Shown piece by piece: positions 4,807-63,585 of a stretch of DNA of 64,000 bases. Source of the DNA: Felixounavirus LF82P5; the sequence record OZ035800.1, one strand, 5' to 3'. Under the pieces are notes generated by a model. That model had not been told where the DNA came from. It worked only from the letters and a program-made list of their open reading frames with translations, and did not search any database. The translations under genes were made by a program, and so were the position numbers. The stretch's first letter is position 1; each line of letters starts with the position of its first letter.

Positions 4807-5190
4807 TTAGATACCTGTACAGCTTCTGTTTTCTAAGAAATACTCAACACCATACATAGCTTTTTGCATCAAATCTTCTTTAAACTGAATACGATGATTG
4901 AGCATAGTTTGTACATCAATATCGTCATGGTGTTTCTCTTTAATATTTGCAGATTGTAGGAAATACTCTGCAAGAACACGATACTGATAGTCAGTTACCT
5001 TATCAGTCATCTCTGTCAAAGACTCTTCAGAGATTGGTTTAAGTAGCTCACCATTAGCCAGAGCAACACCTTTTACAATCTGGCAAGTGTCTTCTGGAAC
5101 ACCTGATAAGTCTACATTTGGAAGTTCTGTTGCATTGACTGGTAAATTCATTGCCATAACCATTGCAGCGGCTAATAAAATCTTTTTCAT
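4807..5190 (-). CDS. secreted protein of unknown function
   Basis: N-terminal signal peptide MKKILLAAAMVMAMNLPVNA; GAGGT Shine-Dalgarno. Confidence 0.55.
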   Translation of the reverse strand: MKKILLAAAMVMAMNLPVNATELPNVDLSGVPEDTCQIVKGVALANGELLKPISEESLTEMTDKVTDYQYRVLAEYFLQSANIKEKHHDDIDVQTMLNHRIQFKEDLMQKAMYGVEYFLENRSCTGI

Positions 5191-8495: not shown

Positions 8496-8756
8496 TCACT
8501 CAATAACCGTAGTATGTGATTGTCCATTTTTGCCATAGCTGTAAGATGTTGTTGTTTGAGAGTTTGGACATCTGACAACAACAATATCTCTGCTTATAGC
8601 ATCACCATGTAACTTGTATACTCTGCAATCTTGCATCTCTGGTGGGAGGCTATAAGAAGCATTTTTATCTTCATAAGAAGGGTTGCAGCCAGATAGAAAA
8701 ATAACACCAAGCGCAATTACCACTTTCCACATAACACTACTCCTATTACTGTTCAC
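8496..8756 (-). CDS. putative lipoprotein
   Basis: Signal sequence with lipobox VIFLSGC. Confidence 0.45.
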   Translation of the reverse strand: MNSNRSSVMWKVVIALGVIFLSGCNPSYEDKNASYSLPPEMQDCRVYKLHGDAISRDIVVVRCPNSQTTTSYSYGKNGQSHTTVIE

Positions 8757-12599: not shown

Positions 12600-12658
12600 T
12601 TTTACTCCCTCTAAAATCATTAACCTCATACATTACTGCAAAAAATTATAAAAAGCAA

Positions 12659-12683
12659 GTTGACAATGTACTTGACAAGGTGT
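12659..12683 (+). promoter_or_regulatory. conserved tandem-TTGACA module (candidate early promoter or operator)
   Basis: GTTGACAATGTACTTGACAAGGTGT; 24 of 25 nt identical to 56049-56073; both sit in divergent intergenic regions. Confidence 0.45.
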
Positions 12684-12857
12684 TAATCTTTGCGAAGTGG
12701 GTTTTTACTTAAAAGGTTACTTAACAGTTTAACTATACAGATACTTTAAAACTCTTAAAAGATTATTTAATAGCTTTTTAAAAAGCTTTAAAGTATAACG
12801 TATAGAATACGTTAAGATAAAAGATTAAAACTTAATAGTTACTTAAAAGAGGCTTAC

Positions 12858-45893: not shown

Positions 45894-46142
45894 ATGGCAA
45901 CTATCCGCGCTACTGTTAACGAGTTCGGTTTTTCCTCTCTGGATGTTAAATTTGACATTGCAGGCACTGATAACGCCTTTGAAATGGTGAAAGGTCTTAT
46001 CAGTCAGACCATCAAAGACTATAATCCTTCTGATGAGTTCTGGAAAGAAACAAAACAGGAAGTTCTCAAAGAGGGTTATTCTTATCACTATTGGGGTGAA
46101 AAAATTGTCTCTCTGTACTACGACAAAGAAGGCACTAACTAA
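45894..46142 (+). CDS. hypothetical small protein
   Basis: 82-aa ORF driven by cassette copy 5. Confidence 0.5.
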   Translation: MATIRATVNEFGFSSLDVKFDIAGTDNAFEMVKGLISQTIKDYNPSDEFWKETKQEVLKEGYSYHYWGEKIVSLYYDKEGTN

Positions 46143-46182
46143 ACGCCGCAGCGGGGCTAAATAGCCCCAGATACCTTTATAC

Positions 46183-46204
46183 AGCCCCTCATAGGGGCTT
46201 TTTT
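46183..46204 (+). terminator. rho-independent terminator
   Basis: AGCCCC-TCAT-AGGGGCT followed by TTTTTT; preceded by a second hairpin GGGGCT-AAAT-AGCCCC. Confidence 0.7.
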
Positions 46205-46205
46205 A

Positions 46206-47801
46206 CGTCTATCCAATCCTTATACAATCCCTTTCCCTTTCCTTTCCAGAATCTTATCAGACCTTAAAAACAATAACTCTATAGTCTACTCTATAACCCT
46301 TTATCAAATCAACTTAAATATAAGCCCATAACCCGAAAGGGAAGGGCAACCATTAAAACGCTCTATAAAGCTCTATAACAGCCTTATCAACCTAACTTAA
46401 GGGATTGCATTAACCTATCTTAAAAAGCTCTTTACAGGGCTTTATAGAGCCTTAAAAGAATCTTATAAGGGTGTAAGCTTTATCATCTCGTTAGCTATCT
46501 TGTGAATAACTAAAAAGGGCTATGAGATAGGAATCTATCGAATCCTATTGATAGTGTCTAAAAAGTATGTTATAGGGGCTATAAAGTTACTTTGAAGTAG
46601 CTTAAAAGTTACGTAAATGCTAGCCCCCTTAACATTCTCTTAACAAATTCTTAACAATCCCTACATAGTTATGCTTGTTAGCAACTTGTTAGCCCCTTGT
46701 TAAATCTCTGTTAAGACCACGTAAAAGCCTTGTAAGAGCCTTTGACATAGCCTTAAAAGCTCCTGTAAAGCCCTATAAAGAGCTTTCTTCATAGTTGGGG
46801 TGTAATTACTAGGAAGAGCCTTAAAAGAGCTTACAAGGAGCTATAGAGAGCTTTTAAGAGGTATGTTTAAAGAGTCACTAAGAGGGAAAGGGAACGATAA
46901 GAAAAGAGATAGTGACCATGTTAATAGCTTGTTAAAAAGATTAAATACTTGTTAGAAACTTGTTAATTATCTTAACAAAATAACTCTTTAAAATTAACTT
47001 GTTAGCTCTTGTTAGTCATCTGTTAAGCCTCTGTAAAGACTATTCAGCAACTGTTAAGAAACTGTTACAGCCTTGTTAGTTCTGTTAAGAATCTGTTAAG
47101 ACCTTTGAAGAGCTGTTAAGAAGATGTGAGAACTGTTAAGAGATTGTTAAGGATATTTTAAAATTTTGCAAAGTACTTGTAAGGGAGCTGTTAAGGGCTA
47201 CCAAGCAGATATACATCTTCTACAGATATTTTTGAGTTCCTTCAAAGACCCTAAAAAATGACTTGACAGTCCTATTTTATAAAAATTTTAAGATTCTGAA
47301 TAATTACCTATACAGTCTTTTAAAAATACAGGTAGAAACAGGTTTATAAGATACCTTGTTAGTACCGTGTTAGACCTTGTGAGATAAGGTCTGTAAAGAT
47401 ATTCCTGTTAAGTTTGTTAAAACAGTCTATATAGAGGCTTAGTAATACCTAGTGAACACCTATAGAGAGTGTCATAGCTTACATAGAGATTAAGAGGTGT
47501 ATAGGAGCTTCTAAGAGTGTGTAGAGAGATGGTTAAGATGATTGTATAGGTTGTTTAGAAGGCTTGTTAGAAGAGTGTTTAGATGGCTATTTAGAAGGGC
47601 TATACAGAGGGCTATTAAGACCACTAGATAGTTGCTAAGATACTATATAGTACTATATAACTATATAGAGAGTAAGATTAAGAAGGTTGTTAAGAAGGGT
47701 AGATATTTTGTTCACATATGATGGTGACCCAGAGGTTGGGACAACCGATAAAATTTTATAAAAATTAAAAAGCCCCCAATTAAGGAGGCTCTTAAGATAT
47801 T
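46206..47801. other. 1.6-kb repeat-dense region with no ORF of 60 codons or more
   Basis: No track ORF on either strand; dense short direct and inverted repeats (CTGTTAAG, CTTGTTAG, AGCCTTAAAAG, CTATAAAGAGC, TTTAGAAGG, ACTATATA). Confidence 0.6.
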
Positions 47802-48425
47802 TTAAATCAGTGTTTCCAGAACTGTCTTCAGTGATGACTTGGTTGTCTGATAAAAATGAGTAAATCCATTGTTGTTATCGAATATCTGCATCATGATATC
47901 ATCTCCCTTGATTGGGTACACTCGGATATCATAGTGAAAACCATTAAAGACACAAGAACCACTACAGAATGCACTAAAGTCAGCCACTGAGATGTACTCT
48001 TCATGACCTGTGATTTTTATACAGACACCCTTACTTGGTCTCTTAGGGTTGATATCTTCCATCACAGACATACTCTGTCCACCAAGAGATACCATAGTGA
48101 CCACTTTACGGTTCTTCTGTCTAAAGTACATCTTAACTTTCTGTAAAGTGTCTTCATAGAACGGATAAGACCTTTCTACAAAGATTCCTTCAAGTGGCTC
48201 TTTACCATTTTCAACTTCTCGGTTATGCCGTACTGCAAAGATAATTTGTTCGAACCAGTCAAGATTTTCTTCGGAGAGTGCTTCTCGAACATCACTCCAG
48301 TCAAGTACTAGGTAGTTACCTTCAACTTCTTTTAAGTTATCTTTTTCCATAGATATCACACCATTATCGTAAAACTTGATATTCTGGTACTGCGAATTTA
48401 TTACTATTGTTCTTGATGAGGTCAT
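47802..48425 (-). CDS. hypothetical protein
   Basis: 207-aa ORF, last gene of a compact minus-strand block. Confidence 0.45.
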   Translation of the reverse strand: MTSSRTIVINSQYQNIKFYDNGVISMEKDNLKEVEGNYLVLDWSDVREALSEENLDWFEQIIFAVRHNREVENGKEPLEGIFVERSYPFYEDTLQKVKMYFRQKNRKVVTMVSLGGQSMSVMEDINPKRPSKGVCIKITGHEEYISVADFSAFCSGSCVFNGFHYDIRVYPIKGDDIMMQIFDNNNGFTHFYQTTKSSLKTVLETLI

Positions 48426-56199: not shown

Positions 56200-56571
56200 A
56201 TGAAAAACAGAACAAACAAAGGCCAGTTTAAAAAAGGCCAGTCTGGAAACCCATCTGGAAGACCGAAAGGCTCTCGTAACAAAAGCTCACTCGTAAAAGC
56301 TCAACTGACCATTGATAATTCTGCTGAGTTTGCTGCAAAGTTGTTTGAGGCAATTGTTACAAGGGACGCTGCTAAGCTTGCAGAGTTCGGTTTAAACACA
56401 GATGACGTAACCATCAAGAGCATGATTGAGGTCGGTAAAACTATCTTTACTCACTCAGCAGGTGAGATGAAGGCACTTGCAGCAGACACTAAGAAGACTC
56501 CTGATAATGGTGGTCAACAACAGACAGATAACAAACCAACGTTCTCTGCTGTAGCGACTCTCAAAAAATAA
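56200..56571 (+). CDS. hypothetical protein with GNPSGRPKG motif
   Basis: 123 aa; N-terminal basic KGQFKKGQSGNPSGRPKGSRNK. Confidence 0.45.
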   Translation: MKNRTNKGQFKKGQSGNPSGRPKGSRNKSSLVKAQLTIDNSAEFAAKLFEAIVTRDAAKLAEFGLNTDDVTIKSMIEVGKTIFTHSAGEMKALAADTKKTPDNGGQQQTDNKPTFSAVATLKK

Positions 56572-56652: not shown

Positions 56653-58068
56653 ATGAGCGAGTTATTTAAACATGCGCACCTTCATGCAGGTCGAACTGAA
56701 AATGGTGCTGTAAACCATACTTCATCAATGTCTGCTCTGGTAGACTTCTACAAAGCCGCTGGCTCAAGCCGTAGCAATGTAGAAATCTTACCAGACCTGT
56801 TCTACAAAGCTTTGCGTGAGGATGTTGATGTTGCAGTTCGTATTTTACTGCATATGCGAGATGTACGAGAAGGTATGGGTGAGCGTAAAGCTTTCCGAAC
56901 TGTTTTACTTCAAGCGATTGAAGATAAAGTTTTAGAGCCTACACAGGTTCTTCGCATTATGGACAAGATTGCAGAACTTGGTCGTTTTGATGACTTCAAA
57001 ATCTTCGTAGGTACTCGTTTCGAGACAGATGCCTTCAAACATTTAGAAGCAGCATTACTAGACCCTGCAACAGCAGGTTTAGCAGCTAAGTGGTTGCCAC
57101 GAGTAAAACCACGCCACAAACAGTTTGTAAAACGTTTCTGTAAGTTTGCAAACTTAAGTGAGAAGGAGTATCGCACACTGTTATCTGCACTGTCTGATAC
57201 GGTTGAGCAAAAAATCTCTGCGAATGAGTTTGGTAAGATTGACTACAGCAAGATTCCTTCACTCGCTGCTGCACGTTACCAAAAACTCTTTAACCGTAAA
57301 GATGGGGAACGTTACAAAGCTTACATCGAGTCACTCTCAAAAGGTGAGTCTAAGATTAACGCTGGTGCTGTTTACCCATACGATGTGATTAAATCTATTA
57401 AGTATGGTAATGCAGATGTTGCTAATGAGCAGTGGAAAGCACTTCCAAACTGGATGGCAGAAGGTGAAAACATCTTGTGTATGACTGATGTTTCAAGCTC
57501 AATGTCTTGGGTGAATCTTGGCTCAATTACTGCCCTTGATATTGGTGTATCACTTGCCTTATATGTAGCAGAACGCAATACAGGTTGCTTTAAAGATGAG
57601 TTAATGGTCTATTCAACAAACCCTCATTTCATTGAACTGAGTGGTGATTTACGAAACCGTCATCGTCAGGTAATGCGTCATGTTGAATATGGTTCAACTA
57701 ACTTACAAGCAGCTTTTGACCGTATTCTTGAGATAGGTAAGAGAAACAACTTGACTCAGAAAGATATGCCAAGTAAGCTTATCATCTTCTCCGATATGGA
57801 GTTCAATCAGGTTGATGGAGCTAACGGTCGTACAAACTTTGAAGCAATTCAGAGTAAGTACAAAAAAGCTGGATATGAGATGCCACAACTAGTATTCTGG
57901 TACTTAGCAAACCGTAATGGTACTTGCGAAGTGTCTGTTAAGGATAATGGTGTAGCAATGGTATCAGGGTTCTCTCCAGCCACTTTAAAAGCTCTGCTTG
58001 GTGGTGAGAAGTTTGACCCAATCAGCGTAATGCTCAAAGCAGTAATGATTGACCGTTACATCTGGTAA
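56653..58068 (+). CDS. vWA-domain protein with N-terminal helical domain (possibly Ro60/TROVE-like)
   Basis: 471 aa; MIDAS-type DxSxS (MTDVSSSMS) with downstream Thr and LIIFSDMEF; helical N-terminal half; directly upstream of the tRNA array. Confidence 0.45.
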   Translation: MSELFKHAHLHAGRTENGAVNHTSSMSALVDFYKAAGSSRSNVEILPDLFYKALREDVDVAVRILLHMRDVREGMGERKAFRTVLLQAIEDKVLEPTQVLRIMDKIAELGRFDDFKIFVGTRFETDAFKHLEAALLDPATAGLAAKWLPRVKPRHKQFVKRFCKFANLSEKEYRTLLSALSDTVEQKISANEFGKIDYSKIPSLAAARYQKLFNRKDGERYKAYIESLSKGESKINAGAVYPYDVIKSIKYGNADVANEQWKALPNWMAEGENILCMTDVSSSMSWVNLGSITALDIGVSLALYVAERNTGCFKDELMVYSTNPHFIELSGDLRNRHRQVMRHVEYGSTNLQAAFDRILEIGKRNNLTQKDMPSKLIIFSDMEFNQVDGANGRTNFEAIQSKYKKAGYEMPQLVFWYLANRNGTCEVSVKDNGVAMVSGFSPATLKALLGGEKFDPISVMLKAVMIDRYIW

Positions 58069-58233: not shown

Positions 58234-58310
58234 CTCTGTTTAGCTCAGCTTGGTAGAGCGTTCCGTTTGGGGCGGTAAGGCCGGAGGTTCAAGTCCTCCA
58301 ACAGAGACCA
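58234..58310 (+). tRNA. tRNA-Pro (anticodon TGG)
   Basis: Hand-folded cloverleaf: acceptor CTCTGTT/AACAGAG, D-stem GCTC/GAGC, anticodon loop TTTGGGG, T-arm GGAGG-TTCAAGT-CCTCC, encoded CCA. Confidence 0.6.
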
Positions 58311-58317
58311 AATTAAT

Positions 58318-58395
58318 GTTCCAGTAGACAAAATGGTAAAGTCACCACTCTTTCAAAGTGGATATTTGAGGGTTCAAATCCCTTCTGGAACGCCA
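58318..58395 (+). tRNA. tRNA-Glu (anticodon TTC)
   Basis: Acceptor GTTCCAG/CTGGAAC, anticodon stem CCACT/AGTGG, loop CTTTCAA, T-loop TTCAAAT, CCA. Confidence 0.65.
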
Positions 58396-58402
58396 GTTTT
58401 GA

Positions 58403-58475
58403 CAGAAGACCAATTGCAGCAAACTTAATCTTATTCATCTGACACGAAATCGGACAAAGAAGAGATTTGGTCTGG
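58403..58475 (+). ncRNA. stem-closed structured element E1 (candidate small RNA)
   Basis: 5' CAGAAGACCAATTGCAGCAA ... 3' TTTGGTCTGG; 7-bp closing stem AGACCAA/TTGGTCT. Confidence 0.35.
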
Positions 58476-58486
58476 TCATTAAGAAT

Positions 58487-58563
58487 TGCGGGTATAGAGA
58501 AAGGGCGTCTCACATGTCTCATTAGCATGGTATCGGCAGGTTCGACTCCTGCACCCGCCTCCA
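58487..58563 (+). tRNA. tRNA-Met (anticodon CAT)
   Basis: Anticodon stem CATGT/GCATG, loop CTCATTA, T-arm GCAGG-TTCGACT-CCTGC; U1-C72 mismatch in the acceptor stem. Confidence 0.55.
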
Positions 58564-58569
58564 ATTTTG

Positions 58570-58629
58570 CAGAAGACCGTATTCAGCAACAAAATACTTT
58601 TTGCGGATAAAAGAAAAAACACGGTCTGG
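58570..58629 (+). ncRNA. stem-closed structured element E2
   Basis: 5' CAGAAGACCGTATTCAGCAA ... 3' CACGGTCTGG; closing stem AGACCG/CGGTCT. Confidence 0.35.
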
Positions 58630-58640
58630 CAATGTATTAA

Positions 58641-58717
58641 GGTTAGGAAGCACATAAGGTATGTGCGGTCGCCTGTTAAGCGAATGGCACAGGGTTCGAA
58701 TCCCTGACTAACCGCCA
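58641..58717 (+). tRNA. tRNA-Asn (anticodon GTT)
   Basis: Acceptor GGTTAGG/ACTAACC, D-stem GCAC/GTGC, loop CTGTTAA, T-arm CAGGG-TTCGAAT-CCCTG, CCA. Confidence 0.6.
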
Positions 58718-58726
58718 AATTTAAAT

Positions 58727-58814
58727 GTGTCGTTATCCCGTAGATGGTAGCGGTGGGGACTGTAAATCCCTTGTCATTGAGACTCGGTAGGTTCGACTCC
58801 TACACGGCACACCA
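58727..58814 (+). tRNA. tRNA-Tyr (anticodon GTA), long variable arm
   Basis: Anticodon stem GGGGA/TCCCT, loop CTGTAAA, 14-nt variable arm, T-arm GTAGG-TTCGACT-CCTAC, CCA. Confidence 0.6.
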
Positions 58815-58820
58815 AATAAA

Positions 58821-58898
58821 GGTTATGTAGTTTAATCTGGTTAAAATACTCCCCTGTCACGGGAGATGATGAGGGTTCAAATCCCTTCGTAACCGCCA
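58821..58898 (+). tRNA. tRNA-Asp (anticodon GTC)
   Basis: Anticodon stem CTCCC/GGGAG, loop CTGTCAC, T-arm GAGGG-TTCAAAT-CCCTT, CCA. Confidence 0.65.
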
Positions 58899-58985
58899 AA
58901 TTATAATAAGTATTTCAAGATGATGTTTTGAGATGGCTATTTAGCCCCTCCCTTAAAGAGTTCTTACGAGTATTCTTTAAAGGAG

Positions 58986-59062
58986 CAGAAGACCAAATTC
59001 AGCAAGTACGTATGATATTTTCAAGCCAATTTAATTTTGAAAAAATTTAAAACTTGGTCTGG
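58986..59062 (+). ncRNA. stem-closed structured element E3
   Basis: 5' CAGAAGACCAAATTCAGCAA ... 3' ACTTGGTCTGG; 7-bp closing stem. Confidence 0.35.
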
Positions 59063-59075
59063 CTCAACAAATTTA

Positions 59076-59207
59076 CAGAAGACCGTTTACAGCAAAACTT
59101 AAACAATCTATTTCTCCGGTAAAGAAAAGGCGAAGGTTCGATTCCTTCACTCGGCAGATGTCGAGTTGGTGTAATGGTAGCACTTAAGATGATAAACAAC
59201 GGTCTGG
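59076..59207 (+). ncRNA. stem-closed element E4 with embedded permuted tRNA-like module (candidate Y-RNA-like RNA)
   Basis: 8-bp closing stem AGACCGTT/AACGGTCT; inner helix CTTAA/TTAAG; T-arm GAAGG-TTCGATT-CCTTC; acceptor-like helix ACTCGGC-AGAT-GTCGAGT capped by a 4-nt loop; D-arm GTGT-AATGGTA-GCAC. Confidence 0.4.
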
Positions 59208-59356
59208 TAATTATCTTTGTAGATAAGTTATTAAGCTTACCTGTGAGTATGCGACCACAAAGGGTGAAAGGGTAAATTCTAGATTTAAACCCAACAAGGC
59301 ACATCGCTACAGACCTTAAGCAAGTCTGGGTAGCTTATCTACAAAGATAATTTAAT

Positions 59357-59432
59357 GGAAGTGTAGCAGAATGGTGATGCGGCAGACTTTTAATCTGACA
59401 GGCGATGGGTTCGAATCCCTCCACTTCTACCA
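59357..59432 (+). tRNA. tRNA-Lys (anticodon TTT)
   Basis: Acceptor GGAAGTG/CACTTCT, anticodon stem CAGA/TCTG, loop CTTTTAA, weak T-stem, CCA. Confidence 0.5.
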
Positions 59433-59436
59433 ATAT

Positions 59437-59513
59437 GGTTCAGTCGCAGATAAGGTAATGCAGGGGTCTCATAAGCCCTATGAATGTGGGTTCGATTCCC
59501 ATCTGAACCTCCA
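59437..59513 (+). tRNA. tRNA-Met or tRNA-Ile2 (anticodon CAT)
   Basis: Acceptor GGTTCAG/CTGAACC, loop CTCATAA, T-arm GTGGG-TTCGATT-CCCAT, CCA. Confidence 0.55.
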
Positions 59514-59514
59514 A

Positions 59515-59590
59515 GCTGGTATAGTTAAGAAGGTTATAACACTCCCCTGATAAGGGAACATCGGTGGTTCGATTCCACCTACCAGTACCA
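59515..59590 (+). tRNA. tRNA-Ile (anticodon GAT)
   Basis: D-stem GTTA/TAAC, loop CTGATAA, T-arm GGTGG-TTCGATT-CCACC, CCA. Confidence 0.6.
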
Positions 59591-59605
59591 ATTTCAATAA
59601 AGTTG

Positions 59606-59634
59606 TTGACATTGAGATGTGACCACTTTATAGT
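59606..59634 (+). promoter_or_regulatory. internal sigma70-like promoter within the tRNA array
   Basis: TTGACA-17 nt-TATAGT. Confidence 0.5.
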
Positions 59635-59837
59635 AACCTTAGTTTTCGTTGCGTAGCGTCTATTTTGCAAATTTAAAATAAATGCAAACGACAATGTTTT
59701 TCTGGCAGTAGCTTGATAGGCTAAACACCAGTGAGGTCTTCCAATCCCTCATCAAAGAATTTGGCGTACTCGCCCACGGTATGATTAATAAGGTGGGCAT
59801 CTTTAAGGGCTTTCTAAGAGAGTCTTTAAAGATTAAT

Positions 59838-59914
59838 GCACCCTTAGTTCAATTGGATAGAGCAACGGTCTTCTAAATCGTTAGTTACAGGTTCGAATCC
59901 TGTAGGGTGTGCCA
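59838..59914 (+). tRNA. tRNA-Arg (anticodon TCT)
   Basis: Acceptor GCACCCT/AGGGTGT, D-stem GTTC/GAGC, loop CTTCTAA, T-arm ACAGG-TTCGAAT-CCTGT, CCA. Confidence 0.65.
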
Positions 59915-60062
59915 AATAGTTAGCAGATTGCTTAGACGACCTTATCGGGTCTCCGTGTAAGGAGGTGGTCTGTATCTCATGTTTTCCAGAACATGTAAAT
60001 AATCTGAGAAGGGGCTTTACAGTGTTGCGAAAATACGGTAAGCTTCGAATTATAGTTTTAAT

Positions 60063-60133
60063 AGGGGTGAGCTATGGCAGCAATAGAGTCTCCAAAATTC
60101 TTGATTAGAGTTCGAATCTCTACACCCCTGCCA
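60063..60133 (+). tRNA. tRNA-like sequence with degenerate anticodon arm (possible pseudogene)
   Basis: Good acceptor AGGGGTG/CACCCCT, D-stem CTAT/ATAG and T-arm TAGAG-TTCGAAT-CTCTA, but no pairable anticodon stem and only about 68 nt. Confidence 0.3.
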
Positions 60134-60147
60134 GAACAGGTGCTTGT

Positions 60148-60552
60148 ATGAAACTTTGTAGAAAATGTTCTCAAGAAAAGCCTTTAAGCTGCTTTCATAA
60201 AAGAGGTAATGGCTATCAGTCTGCTTGCAAAGATTGTAAAGCTAAGTACTCAGCAAAGAGATACAAAGAAGACCCTACTTATAAAGCAAAAAGAAAAGTT
60301 AGGGCGAAATATGACAAAAAGAGGAACAGAGAGTTCCTTAGTAGATATAAAAAGTTTTGCAAATGCAGAATATGTGGCGAATCTGAGCCAGTAGCTTTGG
60401 ATTTTCATCACTTAGACCCTAAAGAGAAAGATTTTGCTCCAAGCAATCTTAAGACTTACTCTAGAGGCACTATTAAGCGTGAAGTCCGTAAGTGTGTTGT
60501 GCTTTGTTCAAACTGTCATAGGAAAGTTCATGCAGGACTGTTAAGTATTTAA
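60148..60552 (+). CDS. HNH endonuclease embedded in the tRNA array
   Basis: 134 aa; Cys-rich zinc-binding N-terminus and HNH core DFHHLDPKEKDF...CSNCHRKVH. Confidence 0.7.
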   Translation: MKLCRKCSQEKPLSCFHKRGNGYQSACKDCKAKYSAKRYKEDPTYKAKRKVRAKYDKKRNREFLSRYKKFCKCRICGESEPVALDFHHLDPKEKDFAPSNLKTYSRGTIKREVRKCVVLCSNCHRKVHAGLLSI

Positions 60553-60565
60553 CAGTCTTATTAGG

Positions 60566-60655
60566 GGTAGGTAGCGGCTAATGGCAGCCAAACAGTCTTG
60601 AAAACTGTTGCCACTGTAGAGATACGGTGAGGGTTCGACTCCTTTACTTACCGCC
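60566..60655 (+). tRNA. tRNA-Ser (anticodon TGA), long variable arm
   Basis: Anticodon stem ACAGT/ACTGT, loop CTTGAAA, roughly 20-nt variable arm, T-arm GAGGG-TTCGACT-CCTTT. Confidence 0.6.
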
Positions 60656-60811
60656 TAATAAGATTTAAAGCCAAGCTTCATTCGGATGTTGCTTTGGTAT
60701 CCCTCGTGTATTGTCGTACACGCACAGTAAAGCACCTAGTAGGTGTCACGGAGAAGAGATAATATCAAGCTCTCCAAAGGTTCTAGTCACCGGATTAAAC
60801 AAGACTATGCA

Positions 60812-60832
60812 AAGACCAAATTAGGTCTTTTT
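60812..60832 (+). terminator. hairpin plus T run inside the tRNA array
   Basis: AGACC-AAATTA-GGTCT followed by TTTTT. Confidence 0.4.
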
Positions 60833-60911
60833 AGAGGGCTTCTAAGGTTATTACAGCTTGTTGTGGAACCTTGTTGCTTAGGTTCTTAGAAGTTCTCTAA
60901 AAAGATTTAAT

Positions 60912-60988
60912 GCACCTATAGCCCAATTGGTAGAGGCAGCAGACTTAGAATCTGCTCAGTGTGAGTTCGAATCTCTCTAGGTGTACCA
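60912..60988 (+). tRNA. tRNA with Leu-type anticodon TAG, short variable arm
   Basis: Acceptor GCACCTA/TAGGTGT, Leu-like D-arm GCC-CAATTGGTAGA-GGC, 6-bp anticodon stem AGCAGA/TCTGCT, loop CTTAGAA, 5-nt variable region. Confidence 0.45.
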
Positions 60989-60995
60989 AATTAAT

Positions 60996-61071
60996 GCAGG
61001 TGTAGCAAAATGGTTATGCGGCTGACTCTTAATCAGTAAGACGATGGGTTCAATTCCCTCCACCTGTACCA
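60996..61071 (+). tRNA. tRNA-Lys (anticodon CTT)
   Basis: Acceptor GCAGGTG/CACCTGT, loop CTCTTAA, same weak T-arm as the other Lys tRNA, CCA. Confidence 0.5.
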
Positions 61072-61077
61072 AACATT

Positions 61078-61153
61078 GGGGTCATAGTTTATATGGTTAA
61101 AATTCGAGTTTTGCAAACTTGGGAACTGAGTTCAATTCTCAGTGACTCCACCA
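61078..61153 (+). tRNA. tRNA-Ala (anticodon TGC)
   Basis: Anticodon stem CGAGT/ACTTG, loop TTTGCAA, T-arm CTGAG-TTCAATT-CTCAG, CCA. Confidence 0.55.
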
Positions 61154-61159
61154 ATTAGT

Positions 61160-61234
61160 GCATCCATAGTTTAAACGGGAAAATTACAGTCTTCCAAACT
61201 GAGGTTGAGGGTTCGATTCCCTCTGGATGCTCCA
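61160..61234 (+). tRNA. tRNA-Gly (anticodon TCC)
   Basis: Acceptor GCATCCA/TGGATGC, loop CTTCCAA, T-arm GAGGG-TTCGATT-CCCTC, CCA. Confidence 0.6.
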
Positions 61235-61241
61235 AATTAAT

Positions 61242-61317
61242 GCTCCTATCGTATAATTGGCTATTACGGTTGCCTTGTAAGCAACTTATCAGGGTTCGAA
61301 TCCTTGTGGGAGCACCA
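61242..61317 (+). tRNA. tRNA-Thr (anticodon TGT)
   Basis: Anticodon stem GTTGC/GCAAC, loop CTTGTAA, T-arm CAGGG-TTCGAAT-CCTTG, CCA. Confidence 0.65.
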
Positions 61318-61321
61318 ATTC

Positions 61322-61408
61322 AGAGGTCAAGTGAAAGACCGCTTTGAGTCAACTGAAGACCGTAACAAATCCCACGGAGTTGAGTTAGCGGCACAACTTC
61401 AGACCTCT
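61322..61408 (+). ncRNA. stem-closed structured element E5
   Basis: Perfect 7-bp closing stem AGAGGTC/GACCTCT enclosing about 73 nt with two AGACCG motifs and internal hairpins; no T-loop. Confidence 0.3.
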
Positions 61409-61413
61409 TTCAT

Positions 61414-61488
61414 ACTCGCTTAGTTTATATGGTAAAACATCACCCTTACAAGATGAAGAAAAAGGTTCAAGTCCTTTAGTGAGTACCA
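61414..61488 (+). tRNA. tRNA-Val (anticodon TAC)
   Basis: D-stem GTTT/AAAC, loop CTTACAA, T-arm AAAGG-TTCAAGT-CCTTT, CCA. Confidence 0.55.
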
Positions 61489-61489
61489 T

Positions 61490-61567
61490 GTTCCAGTATC
61501 CCAATTGGCAGAGGATGCAAGCTCAAACCTTGTACTAGTGACGGTTCGAATCCGTCTTGGAACACCA
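61490..61567 (+). tRNA. tRNA with Leu-type anticodon CAA, short variable arm
   Basis: Leu-like D-arm TCC-CAATTGGCAGA-GGA, anticodon stem GCAAG/CTTGT, loop CTCAAAC, T-arm GACGG-TTCGAAT-CCGTC, CCA. Confidence 0.45.
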
Positions 61568-61572
61568 ATTTT

Positions 61573-61648
61573 GCAGGATTAGTTCAAATGGATAGAGCAA
61601 CAGTCTACGAAGCTGTTAATAGGGGTTCGAATCCCTTATCCTGCGCCA
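61573..61648 (+). tRNA. tRNA-Arg (anticodon ACG)
   Basis: Acceptor GCAGGAT/ATCCTGC, loop CTACGAA, T-arm AGGGG-TTCGAAT-CCCTT, CCA. Confidence 0.6.
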
Positions 61649-61667
61649 ATTTAAAGAGGCTATTTAG

Positions 61668-62225
61668 ATGAGATATTTGAAGTATGCTTCATGGATTTTC
61701 TTAGCTTTGTTAGAGCCATTTGCAGCAATCTTAGCAGTTATCTTAGCACCTTTCGTAGTTCCATTCTACAGTGAGAAGAAAGGACATCTCCCTTTTGGAT
61801 TCAGATGGATGGAGACATATGACAACCAAATTGATGGTGATAAAGGTCATGTCGAACGATGGGCTAAGATTAGAAAGATTGGTAAGCTTGGTGTCTATAT
61901 GCAGAGAGTTGGTTGGCTCTGGAGAAACAAAGCTTATAACTTCTCTTACCATGTGTTAGGAAGAGATGTAAAAGATGTTACTAAGTGGAAAGGCAATATC
62001 AATGTAAGTTCTAACCCTGAAGATAATCAGACAGGTTATCTCCTAATGTGGAACAGTAATGCTTGGGGATTATTCGCTTTTGTACCATCAATTAAAATCT
62101 TTGGTAAACAATTCTACTGGAGAATTTATGTTGGGTGGAAACTTAAAAGTGTTGTCCCAGAAGAAAGGGCATTCTCAAGGGAAAGAGTTATGTTGGCATT
62201 CTTTATTCATCCACTAAGAAAATAA
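61668..62225 (+). CDS. membrane protein of unknown function embedded in the tRNA array
   Basis: 185 aa with AGAGG Shine-Dalgarno; hydrophobic N-terminus (WIFLALLEPFAAILAVILAPFVVPF). Confidence 0.5.
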   Translation: MRYLKYASWIFLALLEPFAAILAVILAPFVVPFYSEKKGHLPFGFRWMETYDNQIDGDKGHVERWAKIRKIGKLGVYMQRVGWLWRNKAYNFSYHVLGRDVKDVTKWKGNINVSSNPEDNQTGYLLMWNSNAWGLFAFVPSIKIFGKQFYWRIYVGWKLKSVVPEERAFSRERVMLAFFIHPLRK

Positions 62226-62233
62226 AGATTTAA

Positions 62234-62309
62234 AGGGGATTAGTTTACAAGGTTAAAACCTCGGTCTTTGAAATCGAAGAAGTTGGTTCAATTCCAACAT
62301 CCCCCGCCA
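62234..62309 (+). tRNA. tRNA-Gln (anticodon TTG)
   Basis: D-stem GTTT/AAAC, anticodon stem TCGGT/ATCGA, loop CTTTGAA, T-arm GTTGG-TTCAATT-CCAAC, CCA. Confidence 0.55.
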
Positions 62310-62311
62310 AT

Positions 62312-62390
62312 GCTCCATTACTCCAATTGGCAGAGAGGCCAGACTTAAAATCTGTGTTATGTATCGGTTCGAATCCGATATGGAGTACCA
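62312..62390 (+). tRNA. tRNA with Leu-type anticodon TAA, short variable arm
   Basis: Leu-like D-arm CTC-CAATTGGCAGA-GAG, anticodon stem CAGA/TCTG, loop CTTAAAA, T-arm ATCGG-TTCGAAT-CCGAT, CCA. Confidence 0.45.
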
Positions 62391-62395
62391 AATTT

Positions 62396-62471
62396 AGCGG
62401 TATAGCATAACTGGCAATGCAACAGTCTCTGAAGCTGTCTTATTAAGGTTCAAATCCTTATGCCGCTGCCA
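62396..62471 (+). tRNA. tRNA-Gln (anticodon CTG)
   Basis: D-stem GCAT/ATGC, anticodon stem ACAGT/GCTGT, loop CTCTGAA, T-arm TAAGG-TTCAAAT-CCTTA, CCA. Confidence 0.55.
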
Positions 62472-62502
62472 CTTCTAAGGGTTCTTACGAGAGTCCTTAA
62501 AT

Positions 62503-62578
62503 GTGGCCTTATCATAAATGGTAATGACCCATGCTGTGAACATGGTCTATACGGGTTCAAATCCCGTAGGTCACCCCA
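62503..62578 (+). tRNA. tRNA-His (anticodon GTG)
   Basis: Anticodon stem CCATG/CATGG, loop CTGTGAA, T-arm ACGGG-TTCAAAT-CCCGT, CCA. Confidence 0.6.
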
Positions 62579-62583
62579 ATTTA

Positions 62584-62658
62584 TAGTCCAAGTAGCTTAT
62601 ATGGTTAAAGCGCGTGTCTGAAAAACATGAGAAGAGGGTTCAAATCCCACTGGACTAC
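62584..62658 (+). tRNA. tRNA-Phe (anticodon GAA)
   Basis: Perfect acceptor TAGTCCA/TGGACTA, loop CTGAAAA, T-loop TTCAAAT; D-arm register uncertain. Confidence 0.45.
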
Positions 62659-62676
62659 CAATTTCAAAGGTGCTTA

Positions 62677-63411
62677 ATGAAAGAGATGACAGAACAAGGT
62701 AAGGAGATTTTTAATCTCTTAAAAACCGGTAGAGGGTTTTCTAATCCCCTTATTACTGGTGCAGCAGTTCTCGGTGGAACCGTAGCTGCCTCTACATCAC
62801 TTGTAAGCTCTATTAGCTCTGTATCAGACCCTACAGTAAAGGATAAGCTTGTTGCTGCTGGACTTACAACAGTTCTGCTTAACAGCTTTACCACGAGTCT
62901 GACAAGCACTACATCAACTACCAAAACACTAACAGATTACGGTCAAAAGTCCATTGATGAGTTTTCATCACGTATGCAGGTAGCAAAAGGTTACTCTAAT
63001 GTTATGGGTGCAGCAGGTGAACAAGTTGGCTGTACACCATTTAGTGGTATTATGGGTGTTGCTACAGAGTATGGTCAAAAAGCTATTGACACGATTAACA
63101 GTACACTAGATAGTGTTAACGATGTGTTAAGTGACTTACAAGATGCTATTGATAAGGGTCTTGATACTGTTTCTGATTTAGCTAACCAAGCTGTTAGTAA
63201 GATTAATGAAGGTATCTCAAAGATTACAGCTTATGCAGATGAAGTTGTGCAGATGATTGAAGAAGAAGCTGCCCTTATTGCAGAGTACCTTAAAACGAAT
63301 ATCAATGGGTTCTTAGCAGGTATCTTACCAGACTGGTTTGATGATGCCTGTAAAACTGGTGTAATTGACACTATTGCAACACCAGAAATGAAGAGCGCAT
63401 TACAGAAATAA
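62677..63411 (+). CDS. Ser/Thr-rich protein of unknown function
   Basis: Track ORF begins with GTG inside tRNA-Phe; start moved to ATG 62677 with AAAGG Shine-Dalgarno. Confidence 0.45.
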   Translation: MKEMTEQGKEIFNLLKTGRGFSNPLITGAAVLGGTVAASTSLVSSISSVSDPTVKDKLVAAGLTTVLLNSFTTSLTSTTSTTKTLTDYGQKSIDEFSSRMQVAKGYSNVMGAAGEQVGCTPFSGIMGVATEYGQKAIDTINSTLDSVNDVLSDLQDAIDKGLDTVSDLANQAVSKINEGISKITAYADEVVQMIEEEAALIAEYLKTNINGFLAGILPDWFDDACKTGVIDTIATPEMKSALQK

Positions 63412-63412
63412 T

Positions 63413-63505
63413 GGAAGATTAACCCTAAAAGGTAAGGGAGCAGTTTGCTAAACTGCCAGTAGCTGAGAAATCGGTGTACCAGTTCAAGTCTGGTATCTTC
63501 CTCCA
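63413..63505 (+). tRNA. tRNA-Ser (anticodon GCT), long variable arm
   Basis: Perfect acceptor GGAAGAT/ATCTTCC, anticodon stem GCAGT/ACTGC, loop TTGCTAA, 20-nt variable arm, T-arm ACCAG-TTCAAGT-CTGGT, CCA. Confidence 0.65.
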
Positions 63506-63509
63506 ATTT

Positions 63510-63585
63510 GAATCCGTGACAGAAATGGATATGTACCTGTCTGCAAAACAGGTTTATAAGGGTTCGAGTCCCTTCGGATTCTCCA
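63510..63585 (+). tRNA. tRNA-Cys (anticodon GCA)
   Basis: Perfect acceptor GAATCCG/CGGATTC, anticodon stem CCTGT/ACAGG, loop CTGCAAA, T-arm AAGGG-TTCGAGT-CCCTT, CCA. Confidence 0.65.

Follow-up and report, generated by a model that had tools for sequence, protein, structure and literature searches.

The non-coding interval 46206-47801 of the window (the whole stretch of Felixounavirus LF82P5 DNA that was analysed, 64,000 nucleotides of record OZ035800.1) probably represents the merged ends of the phage genome, consisting of a left sub-terminal flank, a terminal repeat, and a right sub-terminal flank. It is read as a collapsed genome-end region because the record ends and terminal repeats of related phages map to positions 46623 and 47202. 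A preliminary description, made from the sequence without database searches, had listed a DNA-end or packaging region among several candidates, and this candidate is supported by the homologous positions, which are record ends or belong to an annotated direct terminal repeat in Felixounavirus genomes and in Erwinia phage M7. The location of the genome ends is already known in relatives, and the detailed architecture of the end region appears to be undescribed; the genome papers of Felix O1 and wV8 contain no discussion of the homologue of 46206-47801.

Genome ends of related phages

The GenBank records of Pr103Blw, Ro111lw, ZX4221, and CRP22, four Felixounavirus records from at least three separate submissions, have a first base homologous to 46623. 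The first three all open with GCCCCCTTAACA, and the start of CRP22 was placed from BLAST coordinates (query 474 = record base 1). The records of Pr103Blw and CRP22 close with GTTAAGGGCTACC, the last base being homologous to 47202, and that of NJ12 ends 7 bp past 47202. In Pr103Blw a “short direct terminal repeat” of 581 bp is annotated (PhageTerm); it is identical at both record ends and aligns to 46623-47202. Erwinia phage M7, which belongs to another genus, has an exact terminal repeat of 444 bp with boundaries homologous within 2 bp (the left one 2 bp leftward of 46623 and the right one at +2 from 47202), and both of its virion 5' ends begin with TTAG. PhageTerm analyses in this group gave terminal repeats of 581 bp (PMC8303462) and 613 bp (PMC6454146), and short terminal repeats were reported for Kolesnikvirus (PMC11984208). 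Among relatives the terminal repeat measures 569, 580, 591, 601-603, 613, and up to 658 bp, in 11-bp steps. The boundaries are fixed and sequence-defined across independent isolates; the boxes that contain them recur unchanged in the window, and their conservation extends to Suspvirus, Mooglevirus, and Kolesnikvirus. The ends of the present phage were placed by homology only.

Headful packaging from a pac site inside the interval, with the fixed record ends as artefacts of assembly or of PhageTerm, is very unlikely. “Pac-dependent headful packaging” was indeed assigned to Felixounavirus SEP1 from PhageTerm (PMC13431587), the TerL of Moogle was said to resemble headful terminases (PMC4319497), TerL bears T4-type terminase domains, and several records, e.g., PHB11, Z31, and BPS17W1, open elsewhere within the interval. 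However, the first base shared by the four Felixounavirus records and the last base shared by two of them, together with the exact repeat and homologous boundaries of M7, argue against this mechanism, as do the short direct terminal repeats in three papers (PMC8303462, PMC6454146, PMC11984208) and the comparison of pulsed-field size with sequence length for Felix O1, which pointed to short terminal repeats only (PMC3185647). The boundary boxes, conserved on either side, are consistent with cutting at two defined positions. The TerL gene is located just beyond the end of the window, and the ASO1A TerL contains Terminase_6N and Terminase_6C domains. Published statements on TerL and packaging conflict (PMC4319497 versus PMC11984208).

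Organization of the probable genome-end region

The features proposed for the region and its borders are as follows (strand given where the feature is oriented).

46183-46205, + strand: terminator-like hairpin and T-run closing the rightward block of small genes (stem 46183-46199, 7 pairs)
46206-46622: putative left sub-terminal flank, non-coding and unique; predicted to lie just inside the right-end repeat copy in virion DNA
46608-46636: left boundary box, GTTACGTAAATGCTA followed by GCCCCCTTAACA; the left physical genome end maps to 46623 (±2) by homology
46623-47202: putative direct terminal repeat of 580 bp, single in the collapsed assembly and expected at both ends of virion DNA
46629-46656, - strand: three inverted TGTTAAG-type units (CTTAACA, 11-bp spacing) immediately inside the predicted left end
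46673-46715, + strand: four forward units, CTTGTTAG, CTTGTTAG, CTTGTTAA, and CTGTTAAG, at a spacing of exactly 11 bp
46874-46916: purine-rich, non-repetitive centre of the terminal repeat, bounded by a 7-bp inverted repeat (GTCACTA / TAGTGAC)
46916-47202, + strand: main array of 15 forward TGTTAR units, ending at the right boundary
47188-47217: right boundary box, CTGTTAAGGGCTACC followed by AAGCAGATATACA; repeat end at 47202 by homology
47203-47764: putative right sub-terminal flank, non-coding and unique; predicted to lie just inside the left-end repeat copy in virion DNA
47552-47669, + strand: 5.5 copies of a period-12 unit of the TGTTTAGAAGGC type, then three ACTATATAG units (Tandem Repeats Finder)
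47768-47793, - strand: terminator-like hairpin closing the leftward gene block (stem 47793-47768, 10 pairs, T-run)

In the left flank, the units of ~11.6 bp are of the CTCTATAAAG, CCTTAAAAG, and CTTTACAG types (periodicity peak 11.6 bp), and the + strand is C-rich (GC skew -0.17), while the right flank is G-rich on the same strand (GC skew +0.30) with a peak period of 11.7 bp. Within the terminal repeat, the centre shows a local GC skew of +0.58, and the spacings in the main array are 9-11, 20-22, 31, 39, and 44 bp. The stretch at 46629-46656 pairs with 47083-47101 as a 19-nt inverted repeat with 95% complementarity, and a +/- pair of this kind, ~470-490 bp apart, is present in many Felix-like contigs of IMG/VR.

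The left boundary box is conserved in Felix O1 and SUSP2. At the right boundary, Felix O1, SUSP2, and Mordin share GGGCTACCAAGCAGATATACA without change; Rouille and M7 have GCGGCCACTAAGTAGATATACA at this place. The TGTTAAGGGCTA of the right box corresponds, in inverted orientation, to the TAGCCCCCTTAACA found at the left boundary. Both repeat boundaries sit in inverted copies of TGTTAAGGG(GG)CTA. The predicted cuts are not at mirror-image distances from the inverted motif, which, like the 2-bp and 7-bp offsets of M7 and NJ12, counts against the genome-end reading.

Repeat units and phasing

The interval had been described as saturated with short repeats, and both the motif counts and an 11-bp periodicity proved to be far above those of shuffled sequences. 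The exact counts in 46206-47801 are nine for CTGTTAAG, eight for CTTGTTAG, three each for AGCCTTAA and CTATAAAG, and five for TATAGAG. The “about 20” copies first ascribed to CTGTTAAG and CTTGTTAG thus correspond to 17 exact copies, or to 25 at the level of the core, and TTTAGAAGG, first listed as occurring three times, has two exact copies and one variant. The TGTTAR core occurs 25 times on the + strand versus 1.9 ± 1.35 (maximum 8) in 1000 dinucleotide-preserving shuffles of the region. The 64-kb window contains 135 TGTTAR sites, 29 of which are within 46629-47693. Self-match at lag 11 is 0.394, compared with 0.286 ± 0.009 (maximum 0.315) in shuffles, and echoes appear at lags 21-22 and 32. 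With Tandem Repeats Finder, 47018-47151 came out as 12.9 copies of a period-11 unit (consensus ATCTGTTAAGA); period 11 was also assigned to 46674-46702 and period 12 to 47554-47620, and several shorter arrays had periods of 10 or 11. The period is 10.4 bp in the terminal repeat and 11.6-11.7 bp in the flanks. The whole 1.6 kb amounts to about 145 units of ~11 bp, with cores of 6-8 bp and a spacing of 10-12 bp.

Bending by A-tracts was considered as the source of the periodicity and was rejected. In a wedge model, whose parameters are good for relative comparison only, the mean bend is 17 degrees in the interval versus 16.3 elsewhere, and no top-ranking peak of intrinsic curvature falls in the interval. 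Since curvature is not elevated, the periodicity is attributed to the phasing of motifs.

Phased direct repeats beside AT-rich segments are also a hallmark of iteron origins (lambda ori, P1 oriR, and plasmid iterons), where they likewise lie in conserved non-coding DNA. If the interval were or contained a replication origin, the repeats would be iterons and the AT-rich segments at ~47150-47170 and 47265-47330 would be the unwinding element; we consider this unlikely. The many phased repeats, the transcriptional quiet, and the high conservation of this non-coding DNA would suit an origin. The cumulative GC skew also has a local turning point in the interval, but the turn coincides with a switch in gene orientation and is therefore uninformative. 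Unit size, number, and extent differ greatly from those of iteron origins (about 145 units with 6-8-bp cores over 1.6 kb versus typically 3-7 iterons of 17-22 bp), and the interval here would coincide with physical DNA ends. A search for host-factor sites in the interval gave one DnaA-box-like match and no IHF consensus. The flanking genes all fall into PHROG families of unknown function and contain no recognisable initiator domain. With no 17-22-bp iterons and no identifiable adjacent initiator gene, the replication origin named among the early candidates gained no positive support, and the location, boundaries, and conservation of the interval are already accounted for by genome ends.

Two motif searches gave side observations. 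The CTTAAAAG motifs that form a second cluster at 12.7 kb belong to an ordinary divergent promoter region. A scan of viral contigs with TGTTAAGANNNTGTTAAGA returned Felix-like and M7 contigs, many single chance matches, and an unrelated contig of 81 kb in which 11-bp units are perfectly repeated in tandem; the scan is uninformative for the function here.

Conservation and selection

The window is 99.8% identical to Felixounavirus LF82P5. The interval was found in 256-269 phage records, and comparison across related phages revealed both its conservation and the homologous record ends described above. Within Felixounavirus it is 86-97.5% identical, on par with the flanking 207-aa gene; in Suspvirus and Mooglevirus the identity is 74-83.5%, compared with 67-76% for the flanking genes. 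The right flank (94-97.5% within Felixounavirus) is the best conserved part; for the left flank the figures are 86-94% within the genus and 81% in Suspvirus and Mooglevirus. A misassembled or highly variable junk region absent from related genomes, the outcome that would have undermined the preliminary description, is contradicted by the presence of the interval at 85-94% identity in more than 200 related genomes.

Conservation is concentrated in the repeat cores. The TGTTAR core columns are 97.5% conserved versus 90.5% for the other columns of the repeat, and 78% versus 47% of the respective columns are invariant (p about 1e-10). The corresponding region of Erwinia phage Rouille is globally unalignable (40%), yet it contains 12 copies of TGTTAAGA with the same 10/11/20-bp spacings at the same place, and the main array at 46916-47202 aligns in register with this TGTTAAGA array. 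Among relatives, indels of at least 8 bp are mostly 10-12 or 20-24 bp in length. The alignments indicate that the interval is under purifying selection, with the cores selectively conserved over the spacers.

Absence of genes and bracketing terminators

The absence of ORFs of 60 codons or more in 46206-47801, noticed at the outset, extends to shorter reading frames: no ORF of at least 40 aa overlaps 46165-47801 on either strand, and the longest ORF with a start codon in the interval is 37 aa. The longest stop-free run is 49 codons, compared with ~65 in dinucleotide shuffles, and 3-base periodicity is absent from the interval. Twelve ORFs of 20-37 aa were examined as genes and none is credible; the 30-32-aa “genes” annotated at the homologous place in M7 are probably artefacts.

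Genes on the + strand stop at 46142 and those on the - strand at 47802, with a terminator-like hairpin after each block. A rho-independent terminator is annotated in ASO1A at the position homologous to 46183-46205, and terminators are annotated in ASO1A and Mordin at the position homologous to 47768-47793. Because both gene blocks read toward the ends and halt at terminators, the terminal region appears to be insulated from transcription.

If the interval encoded a long non-coding RNA or several small RNAs, high conservation without coding capacity would be explained, and the right flank gives RNA folding z-scores of -3.3 (+ strand) and -2.6 (- strand). Such modest scores are expected from the many inverted repeats at the DNA level, with the terminator hairpin included. 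An RNA is extremely improbable in view of the inward-pointing terminators on both sides, and the 11-bp unit indels and strand-symmetric layout point to an element acting at the DNA level. Sigma-70-like promoter sites are not enriched in the interval (10 versus 8.3 ± 2.8 expected), the TTGACA at 47263 lacks an acceptable -10 element at 16-18 bp, and the interval matched no Rfam family (best E-value 0.15). The long non-coding transcript that had been suggested is accordingly disfavoured.

Proposed end formation and packaging

The likely role of the region is concatemer processing and packaging by means of a phased array of protein-binding sites. The genome packaged by a Felix O1-type myovirus would be linear and non-permuted and would carry a short direct terminal repeat. 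The cores TGTTAAG and TTGTTAG and their degenerate relatives are placed about one helical turn apart. A DNA-binding protein could assemble on them cooperatively as an oligomer; the most plausible candidate is the terminase component responsible for recognition. One strand-specific nuclease might then nick opposite strands at both boundaries of the single repeat in the concatemer; the inverted TGTTAAGGG(GG)CTA copies at the boundaries are the arrangement expected for such a nuclease. Fill-in synthesis from the recessed 3' ends would provide each daughter genome with a full repeat, as in the classical T7-type model. The arrays would presumably serve packaging rather than another end-related task. 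Around the cut positions the repeats are phased and oriented, with three inverted units inside the left boundary and 15 forward units up to the right one, at spacings that are mostly multiples of 10-11 bp. The multi-site protein-binding locus proposed earlier agrees with the phased, selectively conserved TGTTAR cores; the binding protein itself is one that we infer.

No small terminase is annotated or recognisable in this phage group. Two candidate binders can be named as guesses only: a 123-aa DUF5681 protein (56200-56571) and a 66-aa ORF upstream of TerL. The former has no named homologue among 60 relatives, no PDB relative, and no NCBIfam match, and AlphaFold models it as two long helices with low confidence (pLDDT 68). 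The sole match of the 66-aa ORF is a PHROG family of unknown function.

The arrays might instead form a telomere-like cap, in which the phased sites are not terminase signals but are covered, at both ends of the DNA, by a protein of the phage or virion. The coat would protect against RecBCD or other nucleases, or pace the ejection and entry of the DNA. The terminal repeat of phage T5 contains a repeat-rich injection-stop region and may offer an analogy. We give this possibility a minor but appreciable chance. Going inward from either virion end, the first element would be an array whose CTTAACA units point the same way with respect to that end. Strand composition has mirror symmetry around the repeat, both here and in Erwinia phage Rouille, and the flanks are conserved as much as the repeat or more. 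The window contains no Chi sites, and Bas63, a Felixounavirus, is without a RecBCD inhibitor according to the PhageMaP paper (bioRxiv 10.1101/2024.10.10.617714). However, the end-binding protein is a postulate, and terminase recognition explains the boundary boxes and the arrays abutting the cuts at least as well. The two roles are compatible and not mutually exclusive.

A broader and equally tentative reading, to which we would assign a small share of the probability, is that the whole 1.6 kb constitutes a sequence-encoded phage “telomere”, with units mirror-symmetric about the repeat and coated by one dedicated polymerising protein. With no greater confidence, this protein could mark the concatemer junction, direct the nicking of opposite strands at the inverted TGTTAAGGGCTA boxes, and cap the ends once the DNA has been ejected. 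The target of selection would then be the number and phase of the units and not their exact sequence, which would explain length changes quantised in 11 bp. If true, the large group of myoviruses would possess a defined and conserved end-forming cis-element.

The assignment of the interval to genome ends has practical consequences, since Felix O1-type phages are widely used in typing, biocontrol, and therapy of Salmonella and E. coli. Most of their records are opened arbitrarily (often at rIIA), and the 1.6 kb is left unannotated or given spurious small ORFs. It can be annotated as a genome-end region with exact boundary boxes, which also supplies an orientation rule for assemblies. For genome engineers, 46206-47801 is a conserved cis-element and an unsafe insertion site. 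The oriented TGTTAAG arrays, inverted boundary boxes, and natural 11-bp length variants are sequence handles that make this a tractable system for the recognition and duplication of short terminal repeats, a step that is poorly understood even in T7.

Comparison with known systems

As a kind of element, a T7-like genome end is known. Dunn and Studier are said to have named the T7 arrays beside the left and right repeats SRL and SRR in 1983. Our check of the T7 sequence (NC_001604) showed a 160-bp terminal repeat with three CCTAAAG motifs inside and, next to it, about 12 copies recurring with a period of 13 bp. Positions at the repeat boundary of T7 are important for fitness (bioRxiv 10.1101/2024.10.10.617714). 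The likeness extends to a non-permuted linear genome with a terminal repeat of a few hundred bp, to a non-coding repeat and two unique flanks in which a short motif is reiterated near one helical turn, and to the T7 unit CCTAAAGAC, which resembles CCTTAAAAGAGC and CTGTAAAGAC of the present region. Felix O1-type phages differ in being myoviruses of 84-90 kb with an unrelated gene set. Their repeat is 3.6 times longer (444-658 bp) with flanks of 420-560 bp, the period is 10.4-11.7 bp instead of 13 bp, and TGTTAAG is the dominant core. The genes to either side read toward the ends, whereas the early promoters of T7 read inward from the left end, and a role of a phage RNA polymerase is without support here. 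A further difference is that the length of the repeat is quantised in 11-bp steps among Felix O1-type relatives.

Phased repeats also serve as terminase sites in the R sites of lambda cosB, the pacL and pacR boxes of SPP1, and the pac hexamers of P1. Copies of a short asymmetric motif, helical phasing, opposite orientations flanking the cut, and conservation above that of the spacers are common to these sites and the present arrays. Packaging in those systems yields cohesive ends or permuted, headful genomes and relies on 3-8 sites within 100-250 bp, whereas the region described here would have two cuts 580 bp apart and comprises about 145 units over 1.6 kb.

Non-coding status and periodic repeats

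In BLAST searches, the repeat-dense interval (46206–47801) together with the DNA around it matched Felixounavirus LF82P5 (OZ035761.1) at 99.8% identity. Over the full length, identity is 85–94% with approximately 200 further Felix O1-type myoviruses, which infect Escherichia, Salmonella, or Shigella, and ~75% with Suspvirus and Mooglevirus; Erwinia Kolesnikvirus phages gave short local matches only. The 27-tRNA cluster typical of the group is present in the window.

The preliminary description had noted an absence of ORFs of at least 60 codons and an abundance of short repeats, and both observations were confirmed. No ORF of at least 40 aa overlaps 46165–47801; ORFs that have a start codon reach at most 37 aa, and the longest stop-free run (49 codons) is shorter than in shuffled sequences. 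Fourier analysis detected no 3-base periodicity in the interval. The flanking gene blocks end next to terminator-like hairpins, which are annotated as terminators in the ASO1A and Mordin records.

Ends of the flanking gene blocks
46142, + strand: block end, terminator-like hairpin next
47802, − strand: block end, terminator-like hairpin next

A non-coding RNA encoded by the interval, as had been suggested, is unlikely. Several Felixounavirus records place "hypothetical proteins" within the interval, and the Erwinia phage M7 record (L031, 636–845) has gp001 (32 aa) and gp002 (30 aa) in the homologous right sub-terminal flank. These tiny genes are probably annotation artefacts because of the unit structure and the lack of a coding signal.

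The previously listed repeats were found. The TGTTAR core of the ~11-bp units occurs 25 times on the + strand of the interval, compared with 1.9 ± 1.35 in 1000 dinucleotide shuffles. Self-similarity at a lag of 11 was 0.394 (0.286 ± 0.009 in shuffles), with echoes at lags of 21–22 and 32. The Fourier period is 10.4 bp in the central part and 11.6–11.7 bp in both flanks. Tandem Repeats Finder detected several short period-10/11 arrays in addition to the following two.

Tandem arrays in the interval
47018–47151: period-11 array, 12.9 copies, unit ATCTGTTAAGA
47554–47620: period-12 array

Genome ends of related phages

Among the functions proposed for the interval was a DNA-end region, and comparison across related phages supported this. 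Sensitive BLAST searches revealed several database records that begin or end in the interval at recurring positions, and an annotated terminal repeat also falls there. Pr103Blw (MW481326) carries a 581-bp "short direct terminal repeat" that is identical at both record ends, aligns to 46623–47202, and was attributed to PhageTerm (PMC8303462); the Ro111lw repeat is 613 bp by PhageTerm (PMC6454146). The Ro111lw, ZX4221, and Pr103Blw records share the first bases GCCCCCTTAACA, and base 1 of the CRP22 record is the homologous start position (query 474). Both Pr103Blw and CRP22 end with ...GTTAAGGGCTACC, and the NJ12 record ends 7 bp beyond. The terminal duplication of MET-P1-301 has limits ~10–20 bp inside both boundaries, and the end of a Felix-like metagenomic contig of 81.6 kb lies ~15 bp within the left boundary. 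An exact terminal repeat of 444 bp is present in the record of Erwinia phage M7 (HQ728263), which belongs to another genus. The M7 boundaries, CTATGG/TTAGCCAC... and ...GCGGCCACTAA/GTAGATATACA, correspond by homology, to within 2 bp, to those of the window, AATGCTA/GCCCCC... and ...GGGCTACC/AAGCAGATATACA. Short terminal repeats were also reported for Korean Kolesnikvirus isolates (PMC11984208) and suspected for Felix O1 from its pulsed-field size (PMC3185647). Headful packaging has been claimed in one paper (PMC13431587), but the exact ends shared by several records argue against it.

As judged from the deposited records, the ends of related genomes map to the interval. Since these ends and terminal repeats lie at homologous positions, the 1.6-kb interval appears to be a collapsed genome-end region with the following parts.

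Parts of the genome-end region
46206–46622: left sub-terminal flank
46623–47202: terminal repeat
47203–47764: right sub-terminal flank

Virion DNA would begin with the left-end repeat copy followed by the right flank, and would finish with the left flank followed by the right-end repeat copy. Transcription of the gene blocks on either side runs outward, toward the ends.

At its left end, the repeat opens with three CTTAACA units (inverted TGTTAAG) followed by four forward units, each set at 11-bp spacing. The middle contains CCTTAAAAG, CTGTAAAG, and CTATAAAG units; it also has a unique, purine-rich core delimited by GTCACTA/TAGTGAC. Next come 15 forward TGTTAR units, spaced mostly by multiples of 10–11 bp, which reach the right boundary. 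The boundary sequences, left TAGCCCCCTTAACA and right TGTTAAGGGCTA, are mutually inverted, and both virion 5' ends of M7 start with TTAG. Strand composition is mirror-symmetric: on the + strand, the left flank is C-rich and the right flank G-rich, as in Erwinia phage Rouille. A polypyrimidine run in the left flank, CCCTTTCCCTTTCCTTTCC (46229–46247), is the reverse complement of GGGAAAGGGAA (46885–46895), which sits in the purine-rich repeat centre ~640 bp away.

Conservation and length variation

Conservation was measured on an alignment of 26 relatives. Within Felixounavirus, identity to the window is 94–97.5% in the right flank, 89–95% in the terminal repeat, and 86–94% in the left flank; a neighbouring 207-aa gene shows 83–97%. 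In Suspvirus and Mooglevirus, the non-coding interval (74–83.5%) is better kept than the flanking genes (67–76%). Repeat columns in TGTTAR cores are 97.5% conserved and 78% invariant, compared with 90.5% and 47% for the rest (Mann–Whitney p ~1e-10). Rouille has the same architecture, with ~1.47 kb of ORF-free DNA between convergent blocks. Global alignment of this stretch with the window gave only 40% identity; it holds 12 copies of TGTTAAGA and 16 of GTTAAGA, its autocorrelation peaks at 11 bp, and its array is in register with that of the window just ahead of the right boundary.

Indels of at least 8 bp among relatives are mostly 10–12 or 20–24 bp. The box-to-box repeat lengths form a series (569, 579–582, 591, 601–603, 613–614, 623, 633–638, and 658 bp) with which the published 581 and 613 bp agree. 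The alignments show that selection acts on the motif cores, on their phase, and on the boundary boxes, and the interval is functional sequence, not filler. The sole sizeable window-specific indel in the left flank is a ~20–27-bp stretch at 46521–46547 that is missing from most relatives (column conservation 0; 27-bp indel event).

Beside the left flank, an 82-aa gene (45894–46142, + strand) occurs among close relatives in two allele classes with ~93% or ~68% nucleotide identity, and the adjoining non-coding DNA is ~90% identical in both. The alleles point to mosaic exchange at the very edge of the terminal region.

Comparison with known systems

Direct examination of the phage T7 record (L034) revealed a 160-bp terminal repeat with three internal CCTAAAG motifs; the adjacent unique DNA has ~12 CCTAAAG units at a 13-bp period on the left and a looser set on the right. 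The Felix O1-type region shows this kind of architecture at greater size, with a repeat of 444–658 bp, flanks of 420–560 bp, and a period of 10.4–11.7 bp, and it belongs to a myovirus unrelated to T7 whose flanking genes are transcribed outward. The interval is a real, functional cis-element, most likely a T7-style genome end, which is a known kind of element and not categorically new. T7 units ACCTAAAGAC and CATAAAGAC (L034 161–400) resemble Felix-type flank units CCTTAAAAGAGC, CTATAAAGAGC, and CTGTAAAGAC (window 46340–46860 and 47030–47040); the phages are unrelated, and the resemblance could be a chance product of AT-rich DNA or stem from a host factor common to both.

Phased repeats also surround the cut sites of lambda cosB, SPP1 pac, and P1 pac, although these systems yield cohesive or permuted ends. 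No positive support was obtained for the interval as a replication origin, another early suggestion: the units of iteron origins are of another size and number, and the host-factor sites of such origins are absent from the interval. Elevated intrinsic curvature was not predicted for it.

An unrelated 81-kb contig (IMGVR_UViG_3300042863_002604) contains perfect tandem 11-bp arrays of GAACTTGTTAA (6–12 copies) at three intergenic places (L083 ~10300–10400, L098 ~5000–5080, and L135 ~8600–8730), with near-identical copies in L063 and L090. The unit includes the CTTGTTAA core of the Felix-type arrays, which may be a coincidence.

The short terminal repeats of Felix O1-type phages and their location are already known from a few GenBank entries and genome reports. 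None of the papers examined describes how the units are built, that TGTTAAG cores are selectively conserved across genera, that the boundary boxes are inverted, that length varies in 11-bp steps, or that conservation of the unique flanks is gene-like. The interval is of practical value for annotation and engineering of Felix O1-type phages and is a possible model for terminal-repeat recognition and duplication.

Possible mechanism and candidate proteins

The phased, oriented cores are predicted binding sites of an oligomeric protein marking the concatemer junction; the part of the terminase responsible for recognition is the most plausible candidate. Alternatively, the arrays may act much as telomeres do, protecting the ends or controlling ejection, and this could coexist with the packaging role. 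In T7, positions at the terminal-repeat boundary are reported to matter for fitness (bioRxiv 10.1101/2024.10.10.617714), in keeping with the boundary boxes being the critical element. One strand-specific nuclease might nick the two inverted boxes on opposite strands; if the top strand were nicked at the left boundary and the bottom strand at the right, 5' overhangs would be left, and fill-in by DNA polymerase would give each genome a complete repeat. Such nicking and fill-in has classically been proposed for T7-type ends. The nicking step is tentative here because the reported cut positions are not exactly mirror-symmetric about the box and differ by 2–7 bp between records.

No small terminase is annotated in the phage group, and the TerL gene lies just past the window end. 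Only guesses can be offered for the binding protein: a DUF5681 protein and a 66-aa ORF lying upstream of TerL.

Candidate gene
56200–56571, + strand: DUF5681 protein (PF18932), 123 aa, invariant N-terminal basic arm KG..GNP.GRPKG

This gene opens a rightward block in which a Ro60-like gene and then the tRNA cluster precede TerL. None of 60 homologues has a functional name, and AlphaFold yielded a low-confidence model; the protein is a possible DNA-binding or small-terminase protein. Directly upstream of the 27 tRNA genes (58234–63585) is the gene for a 471-aa protein with DUF2828 and DUF7788 (56653–58068, + strand; PHROG label "RNA-binding protein"), whose Bas63 homologue is reported to be Ro60-like and to counter the ppl defence system (PhageMaP paper, bioRxiv 10.1101/2024.10.10.617714).

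Other features of the window

The region at 12630–12857 was considered as a second repeat array and rejected, as it resembles an ordinary control region: it is a divergent promoter region between a 909-aa leftward gene and a rightward block, with tandem TTGACA boxes and three copies of CTTAAAAG. GATC does not occur in the 64-kb window (~225 expected from base composition), and CTAG, TCGA, GGCC, CCGG, GCGC, and CGCG are 3–9-fold under-represented, which points to restriction or Dam sites being strongly avoided.
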